Position numbers and translations under genes: made by a program | Shown here: positions 56,243 through 64,000 of the stretch, in pieces | Layout: each line of letters begins with the position of its first letter | Numbering within the stretch: position 1 is the stretch's first letter | NCBI RefSeq assembly: GCF_013122565.1 | Contig: NZ_CP053258.1 | From: Escherichia coli | Lineage (GTDB): Bacteria; Pseudomonadota; Gammaproteobacteria; Enterobacterales; Enterobacteriaceae | Strand: one strand, 5' to 3' | DNA: 64,000 bases | The notes under the pieces: generated by a model | Told to the model about the DNA's origin: nothing | The model's input: only the letters and a program-made list of their open reading frames with translations | Database searches by the model: none

Positions 56243-57277
56243 GCGTTCATTAATTTGATTTATTTGCATCCATCAGTGCTTTTAACTCCTCCGGCGTAAA
56301 CGGTGGTTTGCGTCGGTGCAACATCGCATTGCAATTAGGGCACACAGGTAGCAAAAAAACAAATGAGATCAAGGTAATATATCTTTGCTTGCAGGCTTGA
56401 ACAGCAGAAAATTTGCGAGCATGATCGCAATTATTTCACTGCCAGGGATATCAATGGCTTCCAGTAAATCGCTACAGCAGGCAATTGCCAATATAAAAAT
56501 CTGGCACAAGGGTGAACAGCGCGCGCCGCATAAGCCATTGTTATTGCTATACGTATTAGCGGGATACCTGCATGGACATCCGCGCCTTTTCGATTATTGT
56601 AGTGGAACAGTCTACGAGGATGCAGTTCGAAGTGAGTAAGTAAAGGTTGCTGGAAACGATCAATGCCGCCATACAATAATATTTGAGGATCAACAATGAG
56701 TAATAAAAATTACGAGAGTCACCGCAAAGCAATTGTTAGTAAAGGTATACCCCCCACTCTATTAAATAGGCTCACCAATTCGGATATTCAGGTGATCAAT
56801 ACCTTCTTAACACGAGTGAGCAAACTGGAACTATCTCAACAAGAGAAAGACTGGATCATAAAAATCATCTCTATGGTTTAGAGAATTTCAGCCTTGTAGC
56901 CTTTCAAGGGTTTTGTGTGGGTACAAACATTATCGAATCGGGATATAGCCGCAGCTGTAGCTGTACCCACATCAGTAAGTTGATGTAGGTTGACTTAGGT
57001 TGAGCGAAAAATAGCGAAAAGCCTTGTGTGGCGCGGATTTCAGTCACAAAAAAGACGTCCGTTGACGTCTATTGATGTTCCGATGGTGCGAAGGCCGCAC
57101 CGCTCTTTCAAATATAATTCATTGAAATTAATGTGATTTATTAACCCAAAAATCACTTTGTATACTCACATGTATACTCAGCGCGATTCTCTGAGAAATC
57201 AACAACCTGAATAATCAGTCGGTACTTTAACGCTTCACAATGTTTATAGGAATTTCAAGTAAAGACAATGCTGCATA

Positions 57278-58225
57278 TCAAGCATTCAGGATGGCTAGCG
57301 CTAAGCTCCTAAACCTGGAGTAAGCCTCATCCCATGTGATCTTTCGCTCTCCATACACCATTGGCGAAACAAACTGCTGATAGCGCATCTCGTAGAGAGG
57401 ATTGTTCGCCAACTCATCCAGTCCCATTTTTAGCTCATCAACTGGAGATGCGCAAAACTGCGGGTACTGGTTGCCGTAACGCTGAATGTCCTGCTCAATA
57501 GTTTGTTGAACAAAATCAACGAGCTGACTCATATCAACATGACTCGTCTCAACAATACAGTTTGTATCGTAGATATGACGTACCAGCGATGCATCATCAA
57601 ATCGCTCAACATCTCGCACAACTGCCGCAGTACGACGTAACATCGCCACCAGCTTTTCTGCCTGTGTGCTAATGATAGTTGCACATGGAAACGCTGAAAC
57701 AATAGCCGCTTTTCCCGTGATCCCTGTTACCAGTGAATGAATATCCCGTAATTCAGAAGGCTCCAGTAACTTCGCTTCCATCAATTCCAGCCGGATAAAA
57801 GGACGCAAACAAGGTGCCTGCACCACTCGCTGTGGATAACGAACAGGTATGTCATTATAACGATATTCATCCCGCGTCACTTTTGGGTAATCATCATCAA
57901 AATTGAACACACCCGATGAAGCTATTGCACTGGAAACTGCCTGAACAATTTCTTTACGGGTATTTTTTCGCTGAGTGCGGGAAAGTGCCTGAAATGCATC
58001 CTTAGGCACCAGTTTGATATCCACATCTTCCGACATGCGATTAAGTGCGACACCTGATTTTGCCAGAGCGGTTCCTCCGGCAAACACCAATTGATGAGTA
58101 TCGAACACCAGAGGTTTAAGCAATTGCAAAAGCTCAACGATATAGTGATCTTTTTCCACAATTGCGACAGACTCAATACCAAGCGCGTCAGCCACTTCAG
58201 AAAAAAGAGTGGTTAAATCATCCAT
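57278..58225 (-). CDS. AbiEii/AbiGii-family nucleotidyltransferase toxin (DUF1814)
   Basis: 315 aa; GGTAL motif (VFAGGTALAKSG) near the N-terminus; overlaps the upstream small gene by 8 nt. Confidence 0.75.
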   Translation of the reverse strand: MDDLTTLFSEVADALGIESVAIVEKDHYIVELLQLLKPLVFDTHQLVFAGGTALAKSGVALNRMSEDVDIKLVPKDAFQALSRTQRKNTRKEIVQAVSSAIASSGVFNFDDDYPKVTRDEYRYNDIPVRYPQRVVQAPCLRPFIRLELMEAKLLEPSELRDIHSLVTGITGKAAIVSAFPCATIISTQAEKLVAMLRRTAAVVRDVERFDDASLVRHIYDTNCIVETSHVDMSQLVDFVQQTIEQDIQRYGNQYPQFCASPVDELKMGLDELANNPLYEMRYQQFVSPMVYGERKITWDEAYSRFRSLALAILNA

Positions 58226-58613
58226 TTAATCTGCTGTTCCCTACAGATAATACGCGTTTAAAACGCCGGGGGGTTTTTATCTCGGGTGAAGCTGGGATCT
58301 GCGTAGAAGTACCGCTATTGTATGCCTGCGTTGCGCCAGCAAAACGATAGCGTACTTTCAGGCGTTCCAGCGTTTCGACAATCACCGCTGAAGAGCCTCC
58401 GGGAGCCGCTGGCATTACCTTGCCTGTAATACCGTTCCGCCGTGCTTTGGTATACACGCCATAACCAACCTTCAACAGTTGCCCTTCCCTGACAAGATCG
58501 CGCAATACCCGACCAACCTGATCGTAGCCTGCAATATCTTTAAAGTCGTCACGAGTGAATACGTAACGTTTAGAACGTTTCAGTCGTGACTGAATGCGTG
58601 CTTTTATCGTCAT
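58218..58613 (-). CDS. AbiEi-like antitoxin/transcriptional regulator
   Basis: ORF 58218..58682; preferred start MTIKARIQ at 58613 preceded by AGGAGG; immediately upstream of and overlapping the AbiEii gene. Confidence 0.55.
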   Translation of the reverse strand: MTIKARIQSRLKRSKRYVFTRDDFKDIAGYDQVGRVLRDLVREGQLLKVGYGVYTKARRNGITGKVMPAAPGGSSAVIVETLERLKVRYRFAGATQAYNSGTSTQIPASPEIKTPRRFKRVLSVGNSRLNG

Positions 58614-58682
58614 ATTCGCCTCCTGAGTCATTGCATAAAGAGTAGCAAAAATACGACATTTTAGATAGCAAACATACGACAT

Positions 58683-61659: not shown

Positions 61660-61895
61660 GGTAAATGCCTTAATAAAGAATATAAAAAACAGGGCCGCAG
61701 CTTCTGAAAAATTGCGGCTAATTTAATGCGTGATTAAAACGGACGGTAGTATAGGTGGGATAAAATAACAGGTACGTGCAGATATTAAATTACATTCCGG
61801 CAGTGCATATATGAAAGTGATATAGTGCTGAAATAATACATATCTGAATTCTCCCGGTGATAGTCACCGGGAGAATTTAAGTTTGAAATGACACC

Positions 61896-62849
61896 TCAAC
61901 CACGGGATAATCTTGTTTCTATTCCCTGAACTCTTTCGTCTATTAACCTTTCAATAACAGATATTTTATCTGACTTGTAAAATTCAACCAGAAAATCCAG
62001 ACGCTCTTTATGCGTATCACTGATAGACTCCCGTTCCCGTTTTTCAGAAAGTTTACGTCTGAAGTTTTTTTGGTAAAACGCTTTATTTAATTTCTTTACC
62101 GCTTTCTGCTGGAGATCATCATTCGCTGACCATAAATCCAGCATGGCATAAACGGCGTGATAGGTTTCTACACTATTCAGTGGTTCCGGGATCTGAACGG
62201 GGTCCAACTGGCTTCCTGTATTACTACCGTGCTCTTTCTGGAATTTATTAATGTAATTATAAGCCCATATCCAGACTTCGTCATTATCCTCATTAAGCCA
62301 GCGTAATTTTATTCTCTGATGTTCATTTGCCCTCCAGAATACAAGCCTCTCATATAGCCACTGTCTCATCAACGGTGCCTGATTAGTCTCAATATTAATA
62401 TAGTCCAGTAATGCAACGATGATTGAGTATCTTTCGCTATGGCTTGCAGGAGAATCTGTTATTCCGGCTTTCTGATACCAGTTAATGTTTAAATTTGTGC
62501 CCAGCTTTTCGTTAATTGACTCCATACAGCGGTAATCAAGACACATCACGCCCCATAGCCAGAACGTCGCTCTTTCATTTTCTTTTAACCAACTAAAATA
62601 TTTCTCCGGCAGAAGCATCGTATTAATCGACAGCTCCAGTGAGCGAATAAAATTACTTCGCTGAATGGGATCGGGATACCCGGCCTCGAGGGCTGTATTA
62701 ATAATTCTCTCCGAAAGAGATGTATCTGGATTGTTCCCGTCAAACGCAAATTGATTTGCTCCCTGAATGTTTTTCCTGATGTACCAGAAAAGAAACCTGC
62801 TGGTTCGGATGTCCTTCACTGCTATTGATGAGCGCACATTAACGGCCAT
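61896..62849 (-). CDS. hypothetical protein, element cargo
   Basis: 317-aa W-rich ORF with no motif I can assign; lies in the variable slot between the YagK-like and DUF932 genes. Confidence 0.5.
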   Translation of the reverse strand: MAVNVRSSIAVKDIRTSRFLFWYIRKNIQGANQFAFDGNNPDTSLSERIINTALEAGYPDPIQRSNFIRSLELSINTMLLPEKYFSWLKENERATFWLWGVMCLDYRCMESINEKLGTNLNINWYQKAGITDSPASHSERYSIIVALLDYINIETNQAPLMRQWLYERLVFWRANEHQRIKLRWLNEDNDEVWIWAYNYINKFQKEHGSNTGSQLDPVQIPEPLNSVETYHAVYAMLDLWSANDDLQQKAVKKLNKAFYQKNFRRKLSEKRERESISDTHKERLDFLVEFYKSDKISVIERLIDERVQGIETRLSRG

Positions 62850-63440
62850 TGTTCTACCTCGTCATCCTTGTTAAATCAGCAAAAAGCAATAGCGTAATTA
62901 TGACGTGTTTTCGAAGTAAAACCGTAGCAATAAATCAATAAAAGTGGAAAACAAGTAGTAATATCGTGTTATTCCATAGTAATAGAGTACCATTAACGTA
63001 GTTTTTTATTTATCACCATACTCACAGCTTCCGCCCGTAGAAAACGGCTGGATAGTCTTAAATTTTTCCACGTATAGCCCTGGTGGCTTTACGGGTGAAA
63101 CCTCCCAGGATAACGAGTTGACATCTGGAAGATGTCATTCATGATCGCAACTCATAGATTAGATCAATGTATTAATTATAACTTAAGAGTGAAATTCTTT
63201 ATCTTCAGGAACAGATAATTAACTACGAACACCAGTAAATACCGGGCTTCTACTCTTTTTATCACCCTTTCTTTATGAATCAACATTGCCGGTATTAATA
63301 TTATGTTTATCACTCATTCATTAGATTCAGCATATAGAGGGATGACACCAGAGACAGGGAAAAGTAATCCAGATCGGCATAGCTCAGTGAAAAGTTACTA
63401 CAGCACTTATGGATATGTAACCAACCACAAGGAACTGAAG

Positions 63441-64000
63441 CATGAAACTGAATGAACGATATGGCAAGCCTAATGCACACTATATGAAACGTCTGGAAGA
63501 GATTACTCGCTATGCGATGGAGGATTACGCCAGAATACTGGCTTTCAGAGTGGATTTATTACTGCCAGTGGGTAATAGCCATAAAGGGTATGATTCAGCG
63601 GTTATTACCCGTTTTATAGCCTCACTGAAAGCACAGATAGCCGCATATTTACAACGGCGCAGGAGAGACGGTAAACGTGTTTACCCCTGTAAGCTGCGAT
63701 ATGCATGGGTAAGAGAATTTGGCGAACTGAATGGCAACAAGCATTATCACATGCTGTTGTTGGTTAATCGGGAAGTATTCAGGAACACCATGCTGAATAC
63801 GGAGAATTCAGCGCAACCTCGCGGATTGCTGGTGGGAATGGTGGCGCGTGCATGGGCTGTGGCGCTTAGACGTACCGGAGATATGGCAAATAAAGCCCCC
63901 TTTCATTTACCGGGCGTCTCTTATGAACTGGACCGCAGAAATGGCACAAATACGGACTTTTTCCGCAGCTACATATACCACATCAGTTATCTGGCGAAGG
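63441..64000 (+). CDS. YagK/YfjJ-family protein (inovirus Gp2-like), 3' end beyond the window
   Basis: Own translation from the ATG at 63441 (MKLNERYGKPNAHYMKRLEEITRYA...) stays open to the window end; resembles CP4 prophage YfjJ/YagK. Confidence 0.55.

Follow-up and report, generated by a model that had tools for sequence, protein, structure and literature searches.

The stretch of Escherichia coli DNA analysed here (the window, 64,000 nucleotides) carries, beyond the sialic-acid gene nanS, an AbiE abortive-infection pair close to a CbtA/CbeA toxin–antitoxin module, raising the questions of whether both belong to one mobile element, where that element ends and how AbiE came to lie in it. We conclude, with a probability of roughly 0.85, that a tyrosine integrase inserted a genomic island at the tRNA-Leu gene leuX and that positions 57098–64000 are the distal (attR) end of this island, which has a CP4-type backbone, the debris of an older island alongside and AbiE in an exchangeable slot. 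The combination of AbiE with CbtA/CbeA is real but ordinary: the annotations of dozens of E. coli genome sequences already show it.

Gene content and predicted functions

An earlier reading made from the sequence alone had proposed the minus-strand order DUF932, RadC-like, CbeA/YeeU, CbtA, DUF4942, AbiEi and AbiEii. This order is borne out, each gene with an HMM match, including the DUF1814/AbiEii and CbtA/CbeA families on which that reading had been staked. The island end contains the following features.

57278–58225, minus strand: abiEii, predicted DUF1814 nucleotidyltransferase toxin, 315 aa (PADLOC 5.5e-128; Pfam PF08843 7.6e-30 over 38–303)
58218–58613, minus strand: abiEi, predicted short wHTH antitoxin of the DUF6088 type, 131 aa from the second Met (PADLOC AbiEi 5.3e-53)
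58643–58683, unstranded: two 18-nt direct repeats, AATGTCGTAT(G/T)TTTGCTA, spaced 23 nt, between the DUF4942 stop and the abiEi ribosome-binding site
58683–59516, minus strand: DUF4942 protein, 277 aa (Pfam 3e-70)
59631–59972, minus strand: predicted CbtA-family toxin, 113 aa (PF06755 2.5e-55)
60003–60338, minus strand: predicted CbeA/YeeU-family antitoxin, 111 aa (PF06154 about 4e-46)
60338–60811, minus strand: RadC-like JAB-domain protein, 157 aa (TIGR00608, 155 bits; cut-off 134)
60841–61659, minus strand: DUF932 protein, 272 aa (HMM 6e-52)
61896–62849, minus strand: backbone protein without family assignment, 317 aa (ORF)
63442–64000, plus strand: Inovirus Gp2-family (YfjJ-like) gene, cut by the window end (translation; annotated at the same place in relatives)

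The eight ORFs from abiEii through the 317-aa gene are full length and equal RefSeq genes in length. NCBIfam matches were limited to RadC and nanM (NF010730, 6e-181), plus a sub-threshold DUF932 match (17.7 bits against a cut-off of 110.7), and were uninformative for the toxin–antitoxin genes. No PHROG structural or replication matches were found among the window genes.

The cbeA gene lies upstream of cbtA with a 30-nt gap, the PF06154-then-PF06755 arrangement of type IV toxin–antitoxin pairs. The CbtA of the window is 77% identical to YkfI and 58% to K-12 CbtA (the range among K-12 paralogues is 58–77%), and its CbeA is 69% identical to K-12 CbeA (paralogue range 62–69%). K-12 CbtA acts on FtsZ and MreB, and the CbeA antitoxin acts on the filaments. 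The RadC-like protein shares 55–57% identity with YkfG, YfjY and YeeS, and the DUF932 protein 83–84% with YfjQ and YafZ. The antirestriction and DUF987 genes are absent: 29 nt separate the DUF932 and RadC genes, RadC overlaps cbeA by 1 nt, and tblastn with K-12 YfjX/YafX and YpjJ/YeeT/YkfH over 56000–64000 gave no match for either. The sequence-only reading had noted this absence, but it placed DUF987 between DUF932 and radC, whereas its actual place is the interval between radC and the antitoxin. Measured against the canonical CP4 distal module (DUF932 ... antirestriction, RadC, DUF987, YeeU, CbtA), two genes are missing here and four stand in canonical order; the loss is a backbone trait, common to elements without AbiE. 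The 317-aa protein has no Pfam, NCBIfam, PHROG or PDB match and is represented by only 12 clusters among 5.8 billion proteins. Its model has a predicted all-alpha fold (pLDDT 76), and its AFDB matches are uncharacterised gamma-proteobacterial proteins of ~300 aa that give no functional lead. The compact island backbone comprises the Gp2-like gene, this 317-aa orphan, DUF932, RadC-like, CbeA, CbtA and DUF4942. Elsewhere, the DUF4942 domain is fused to DNA methyltransferases.

The AbiE genes are bicistronic, overlapping by 8 nt with the antitoxin gene upstream, and the abiEi start is the same as the RefSeq start in relatives. In AbiEii the motifs AGG-x15-DVD (49–69), KLVAMLRR (191–198) and RHIYD (216–220) are intact and agree with motifs I and II (hG[G/S]x15DhD), III (KLxAaxxR) and the Asp of motif IV, as defined for AbiEii toxins by Dy et al. 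2014 (PMC3985639), with Met in motif III against an aromatic residue in the published consensus. The PADLOC match to AbiEi spans positions 1–128 of a 131-position subfamily model; Pfam gives DUF6088 at 7e-6 (only positions 2–100 of a 172-position model) and AbiEi_4 at 1.7e-4, so that this 131-aa protein may or may not have the two-domain architecture of studied AbiEi proteins, in which the C-terminal domain neutralises the toxin. PDB sequence searches with AbiEii and AbiEi returned no usable match. The 18-nt direct repeats are the cassette junction and a possible AbiEi operator; the operator role is weakened because copy one and 8 nt of copy two also occur where McrBC replaces AbiE. Consensus promoter scans gave fewer matches than shuffled sequence and were not used.

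In the mechanism that we propose, the wHTH protein AbiEi would repress the operon and hold the AbiEii nucleotidyltransferase inactive. Should the AbiEi supply fail, through phage infection or island loss, AbiEii would modify its target and translation would halt; the target of AbiEii homologues is the acceptor end of tRNA. CbtA would stop FtsZ/MreB polymerisation unless countered by CbeA, and toxicity of the AbiE–CbtA island and its defence against phages are likewise predictions. Together, the two modules would stabilise the island and may give abortive-infection defence. Neutralisation of AbiEii by AbiEi via induced auto-phosphorylation is described in a 2026 preprint.

Whether defence is part of this picture is a separate matter, and it is possible, though doubtful, that AbiE and CbtA/CbeA are addiction systems only, keeping the island in the chromosome without acting against phages. 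AbiE stabilised a plasmid in E. coli (PMC3985639), both modules lie at the end of an excisable element, and the K-12 leuX island also ends in a toxin–antitoxin pair (topAI–yjhQ) near nanS. Against this, members of the AbiE family give phage resistance (PMC3985639), and defence genes dominate the leuX hotspot (PMC10121019; PMC12707154).

The island boundary at the leuX remnant

The sequence-only reading had set AbiE directly beside nanS. In fact, ~1 kb lies in between, holding relics of an older island and an att remnant, as listed here with the nanS flank.

55262–56242, plus strand: nanS, intact sialate O-acetylesterase gene, 326 aa, the chromosomal flank outside the island (ORF, co-linear with nanM–nanS of relatives)
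56250–56355, minus strand: 3' remnant of an HNH endonuclease gene (blastn against two relatives with an annotated full 651-nt gene)
56454–56603, plus strand: 5' fragment, 50 codons, of a phosphorothioated-DNA-binding restriction endonuclease gene (partial gene annotated in relatives)
56696–56881, plus strand: conserved hypothetical ORF, 61 aa (phrog_25874 at 6.8e-46; WP_000066585)
56899–57083, unstranded: upstream (leuX-proximal) relic of the integrase gene of an older leuX island (blast similarity to int–leuX spacers)
57084–57097, unstranded: att remnant TGGTGC-GAAGGCCG, 14 nt, the leuX 3' end with a 1-nt deletion (alignment with leuX junctions)
57098–57249, unstranded: distal (attR) arm of the island (arm to ~57200 common to ParE-type elements)

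The HNH gene has lost ~570 bp between 12-nt repeats. The phosphorothioated-DNA-binding endonuclease gene is present in full (873 nt) in BE2-5 and E2348/69, and homology to the full gene stops at 56597. Positions 56899–57083 match the spacer between int and leuX in MB06022 and in E. coli W island B at 82–90% identity, the integrase gene itself being deleted. An IS1-flanked plasmid fragment carries the 61-aa ORF as well.

The leuX remnant and the abiEii stop codon are 180 bp apart, and co-linearity with three other genomes breaks at 57094–57097. E. coli W, SA186 and RCAD0514 share this att junction; in E. coli W, where it is identical, an intact integrase of a neighbouring island lies directly beside it. 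A search across the window for the 24-nt leuX 3' end with ≤3 mismatches gave no match; the 14-nt, indel-bearing relic came from alignment. The integrase and leuX of this genome lie beyond the window; relatives sharing the window's last 7.8 kb at 97.8% identity carry both. Scans of 55000–64000 and 50000–64000 for Rfam families and tRNAs were empty. The distal tRNA 3'-end repeat of a CP4-type element is present in degenerate form (14 nt, 1-nt deletion). The earlier description of an integrative-element end is supported by the leuX 3'-end remnant near abiEii, the stop in co-linearity and the relatives that run on to an integrase and tRNA-Leu.

The relic at 57084–57097 marks the true island boundary, the junction of an old island with the AbiE-carrying one, and the ~840 bp between it and nanS (56243–57083) are debris of the older leuX island, the two standing in tandem. 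In our reading, the present island arrived beside its predecessor, of which these fragments are all that remain. Within the attR arm, the 9-mer GTATACTCA occurs as a direct repeat at 57160 and 57172, putative arm-type sites for the integrase, and strain 1500 has two copies of the same 9-mer in its int-proximal arm. We infer that the AbiE–CbtA island could be excised or mobilised, and the 1-nt deletion in the att core might block excision.

Exchange of cargo beside DUF4942

Between the attR arm and DUF4942 lies a slot of ~1.5 kb, occupied by AbiE in the window and variable between strains. RCAD0514 and SA186 share the left junction (92%) and the backbone (97–99%) and carry CopG–ParE and an HTH gene in AbiE's place; in BE2-5 and E2348/69, McrBC adjoins DUF4942. 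Close relatives, E. coli W among them, have AbiE followed by the same backbone on to the tyrosine integrase and leuX. The AbiE cassette is conserved at 99.4–99.8% across strains, and sliding identity shows the DUF4942 gene to be a mosaic, with allele switches within the gene. Taken together, these comparisons indicate that slot cargo is exchanged by homologous recombination, with DUF4942 and the arm as flanks. A bolder proposal, which we think unlikely, is that the slot is a dedicated recombination-driven cargo site of the leuX island family, in which AbiE, CopG–ParE with HTH, and McrBC are swapped, DUF4942 serves as the anchor and may also cooperate functionally with its neighbour.

Across 5,426 complete E. 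coli genomes, the AbiE pair occurs in 133 and the full stack in 45, and the compact backbone recurs in many genomes. In about two-thirds of the AbiE-pair genomes, the pair is joined via DUF4942 to hsdMSR, with no CbtA module, so its occurrence does not depend on the CP4 backbone. Such genomes bear on a quite improbable alternative, namely that AbiE and DUF4942 belong to a resident, integrase-less nanS–leuX defence array (HNH, phosphorothioation-dependent restriction gene, McrBC or AbiE, DUF4942, hsdMSR) fused to a CP4-type module by recombination inside DUF4942, AbiE then not being island cargo. That ~88 of the 133 AbiE-positive genomes match only up to the DUF4942 start, that hsdMSR follows DUF4942 in strain M18, that McrBC takes AbiE's place in BE2-5 and E2348/69 and that DUF4942 is mosaic all fit this account. 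However, the slot falls inside the island, because AbiE, or the ParE genes that replace it, has the att remnant and the conserved arm on its outer side in the window, E. coli W, SA186 and RCAD0514. The M18 and strain 1500 arrangement lacks 56892–57249, and a deletion between GAATTTCA microhomologies could produce it from the window type. For the window, we therefore reject a resident AbiE in favour of an island-borne one. Least probable is a decaying, immobile relic with toxin–antitoxin genes that no longer function: the deleted neighbouring integrase, the fragmentary HNH and phosphorothioation-dependent restriction genes, the 1-nt deletion in the att core and the missing antirestriction and DUF987 genes would fit, but the eight full-length, RefSeq-matching ORFs, intact AbiEii motifs, near-identical cassettes and recurrent backbone do not.

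The window combines a backbone like that of RCAD0514 with an AbiE cassette resembling that of E. coli W and with a Zorya island alongside. This exact recombinant is absent from the 5,426 complete genomes, in which the best matches cover ≤72% of the window's last 25 kb in one place. We found no dedicated description in the literature of DUF4942 with CbtA, or of leuX with AbiE. Beyond correct annotation, the locus matters little. It offers a worked example of how the leuX hotspot is built, with islands accreting in tandem, the older one decaying and cassettes being swapped beside the attR arm, and it narrows the minimal conserved CP4 module, as the CbtA/CbeA–RadC–DUF932 core survives without antirestriction and DUF987.

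Comparison with known systems

Comparison with the K-12 CP4 elements, which the sequence-only reading had called for, gave agreement in the order of DUF932, RadC-like, antitoxin and toxin genes and disagreement over antirestriction and DUF987. CP4-57 (YpjF/YfjZ), CP4-6 (YkfI/YafW) and CP4-44 (CbtA/CbeA) have the same order of DUF932, RadC-like, YeeU-family and CbtA-family genes at the distal end of an integrase-bearing island, and the window backbone is 55–84% identical to these paralogues. It is without the antirestriction and DUF987 genes and the ~3 kb of small genes lying between DUF932 and RadC in CP4 elements and, unlike them, carries DUF4942 at full length and an additional AbiE cassette distal to CbtA. 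Judged by annotation names, the complete islands of strain 1500 and E. coli W include none of the genes that accompany the integrase in P4-like phage satellites (alpha primase, sid, psu, delta).

With the AbiE systems of S. agalactiae and Lactococcus and with MenA/MenT of M. tuberculosis, the window pair shares the DUF1814 nucleotidyltransferase, the upstream wHTH partner and the overlapping bicistronic genes, although sequence comparison links it to no solved AbiE or MenT structure. Motifs I–IV are nearly co-positioned, with G50/G51 and D67/D69 here against G49/G50 and D67/D69 in S. agalactiae AbiEii. The antitoxin differs, being a 131-aa DUF6088-type protein rather than the ~200-aa two-domain AbiEi of studied systems, and upstream of abiEi are two 18-nt direct repeats in place of the 23-bp inverted repeats of studied AbiE (PMC3985639).

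The site itself is known: leuX is defence hotspot #37 of the E. coli pan-genome (Hochhauser et al. 2023), with AbiEii recorded there (PMC10121019; PMC12707154). The earlier notion of a second, separate layer of defence gives way here, as the Zorya-containing island and the AbiE island both fall in this one published hotspot, from which AbiEii and Zorya have both been reported. Like the other occupants of hotspot #37, including the E. coli W leuX islands and K-12 KpLE2/PR-Y, the window combines the same site, hypervariable defence content and tandem integrase-bearing islands.

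Gene array and family assignments

The sequence-only reading placed the end of an integrative element at 56243-64000, with AbiEi and AbiEii stacked on a CbtA/CbeA module next to nanS. The observation is correct and its interpretation essentially right; however, public genomes already contain the parts, the place and the layout in annotated form, and the hotspot has been published. Little beyond a cargo slot is new, and the interest is low. The ORF listing of the window gives a tight minus-strand array from abiEii to a 317-aa ORF, with nanM, nanS and a type II Zorya operon (PADLOC) upstream.

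Features of the array (ORF listing; Gp2-like gene from translation)
57278-58225, minus: abiEii
58218-58613, minus: abiEi; true start at the second Met, the start also used in RefSeq relatives
58683-59516, minus: DUF4942 gene
59631-59972, minus: cbtA-like
60003-60338, minus: cbeA/yeeU-like
60338-60811, minus: radC-like
60841-61659, minus: DUF932 gene
61896-62849, minus: 317-aa ORF
63442 onward, past the window end, plus: Gp2-like gene

Gene order, strand and families are as first read. AbiEii matched PADLOC (5.5e-128) and Pfam PF08843 (7.6e-30), and AbiEi matched PADLOC (5.3e-53) and Pfam DUF6088 (7e-6) and AbiEi_4 (1.7e-4); Pfam also recovered DUF4942 (3e-70), CbtA (2.5e-55), CbeA (4e-46) and DUF932 (6e-52), and the RadC-like protein exceeds the TIGR00608 cut-off. 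By the definitions of Dy et al. 2014 (PMC3985639), AbiEii keeps the catalytic signature hG[G/S]x15DhD (A49-G50-G51 ... D67-V68-D69), a KLxA.xxR motif at 191-198 and a motif-IV-like RHIYD; the two abiE genes share an 8-nt overlap. Lack of HMM support for DUF1814/AbiEii or CbtA/CbeA had been named as counting against the reading; given these matches, the intact motifs and the gene overlap, the observation stands.

Antirestriction and DUF987 genes had been described as missing from between the DUF932 and radC-like genes. The canonical order, taken from K-12 CP4-57, CP4-6 and CP4-44 and the selC island of strain ET734, is DUF932, ~3 kb of small genes (the antirestriction gene last), RadC, DUF987, YeeU and CbtA, followed by DUF4942 where annotated (ET734). 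The window module lacks both genes: DUF932 lies only 29 nt from RadC, RadC overlaps CbeA by 1 nt, and the K-12 antirestriction and DUF987 proteins as tblastn queries found no match in 56000-64000. The absence therefore holds, but DUF987 had been slightly misplaced, as it normally sits between radC and the antitoxin. Because the compact backbone also occurs in genomes without AbiE, the gene loss belongs to the backbone and not to the AbiE stack.

nanS is intact in the window (55262-56242, 326 aa), whereas the annotations of most examined relatives list a truncated gene or a pseudogene (strains 1500, MB06022, BE2-5, M18 and RCAD0514). The 317-aa backbone protein has no match in Pfam, NCBIfam or PHROG, and a set of 5.8 billion proteins contains only 12 clusters of it (Enterobacteriaceae). 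Structure prediction gives an all-alpha fold (pLDDT 76) that matched nothing in a PDB fold search; AFDB matches are uncharacterised gamma-proteobacterial proteins of ~300 aa, a few labelled transcriptional regulator or CopG family, and the last 40 residues resemble a ribbon-helix-helix.

The island boundary at leuX

Relatives at 97.8% identity (strain 1500 and E. coli W) extend past this module through Gp2-like, AlpA-type HTH, GTPase and WYL genes and variable defence cargo, including type I R-M, Dsr1 and a PT-dependent endonuclease, to a tyrosine integrase abutting tRNA-Leu (leuX). Positions 57084-57097 of the window spell TGGTGC-GAAGGCCG, the leuX 3' end minus one base, and the preceding 56899-57083 is 82-90% identical to the spacer that separates leuX from an integrase start codon. 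This junction recurs unchanged in E. coli W, where an intact integrase belonging to a second island lies directly to its left, and genomes sharing the Zorya-nanMS side lose co-linearity at 57094-57097, within their own leuX. These observations support the proposed element end and together show a tandem junction of two leuX islands. Integration of the AbiE-bearing island displaced an older one, of which there remain an HNH 3' fragment, a 50-codon PT-dependent endonuclease gene fragment, a 61-aa ORF and the region upstream of the integrase.

A distance of 180 bp separates the junction from the stop codon of abiEii. The 152 bp between junction and abiEii carry two direct copies of the 9-mer GTATACTCA; strain 1500 likewise has two copies in its int-proximal arm, consistent with putative arm-type integrase sites. 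The stretch 56892-57249 is missing from strains 1500 and M18 and from an IS1-bounded plasmid fragment; the joint falls in GAATTTCA microhomology, and the octamer AATTTCAG at the joint is present in several tandem copies on the plasmid, which fits a secondary deletion. Around 20 E. coli plasmids bear this IS1-flanked chromosomal fragment (for example, p1585m1_C 4438-5215; window 56344-56891 plus 57250-57464), on which lie the PT-endonuclease remnant, the 61-aa ORF and the final 215 nt of abiEii. In RCAD0514, TGCGAAGG is tandemly triplicated at the equivalent of 57084-57097 (own locus ~5330-5360), so the leuX-derived core appears slippage-prone.

AbiE as an exchangeable cassette

RCAD0514 and SA186 share the left junction (92% over 56344-57196, leuX relic included) and a backbone 97-99% identical from DUF4942 to DUF932, with CopG-ParE and an HTH gene in place of AbiE between the attR arm and DUF4942. 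In BE2-5, E2348/69 and others DUF4942 is followed by McrBC, and M18-type genomes have AbiE-DUF4942 linked to hsdMSR, not to CbtA. AbiE is thus an exchangeable cassette.

Sliding identity shows that the window's DUF4942 allele changes closest partners within the gene: 59271-59450 (180 nt) matches the ParE-type strains at 98-100% identity but the E. coli W, M18 and BE2-5 alleles at only ~73%, and closer to the 3' end the alleles hardly differ. The switch marks recombination inside DUF4942; with the junction and backbone matches, it makes the window a recombinant of an RCAD0514-like backbone and a W-like AbiE cassette. The cassette joint carries two 18-nt direct repeats, with the DUF4942 stop on one side of them and the ribosome-binding site of abiEi on the other; because they are partly common to the McrBC context, they are not confidently assigned to AbiEi binding. 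The defined cargo slot between the island's distal (attR) arm and DUF4942 is the only, modest, addition to prior knowledge.

The leuX hotspot and a proposed mechanism

The AbiE pair (at least 80% coverage) occurs in 133 of 5,426 complete E. coli genomes, and the full AbiE-to-DUF932 stack in one piece in 45. AbiEii homologues at 42-52% identity lie on plasmids of Acinetobacter, Aeromonas, Vibrio and Shewanella, at least some beside an annotated DUF6088 partner. The leuX locus is hotspot #37, favoured by Zorya and one of three (#5, #33 and #37) to which AbiEii is confined (Hochhauser et al. 2023, PMC10121019); a later review calls it the most occupied defence locus of E. coli (PMC12707154). The two layers of defence first described are both present, but both belong to this one well-described hotspot. 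Between uxuA and nanM, the window's lineage has the large Zorya-containing defence island (~24000-53880) where gntP, the fim operon and nanC would otherwise lie. This island contains a UvrD-like helicase, 2113-aa, 952-aa and 2107-aa helicases, a 1638-aa methyltransferase, an STY4851-family protein and ZorA2/B2/E, of which the Zorya proteins were checked, by PADLOC.

The two modules most likely work as follows. AbiEi would bind the operon control region, and loss of its supply would free the AbiEii nucleotidyltransferase. K-12 CbtA blocks FtsZ and MreB polymerisation, and CbeA counters it through filament bundling. At the end of an excisable island, AbiE and CbtA/CbeA would penalise island loss, and AbiE may add abortive-infection defence. 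AbiE stabilises plasmids (Dy et al. 2014, PMC3985639); in the S. agalactiae system, AbiEi keeps AbiEii inactive through induced auto-phosphorylation (2026 preprint), and the mycobacterial AbiEii homologues MenT modify tRNA acceptor stems. The layout echoes that of the K-12 leuX island, in which the toxin-antitoxin pair topAI-yjhQ sits beside the methyltransferase gene yjhP (K-12 locus 38240-39054) at the distal end near nanS.
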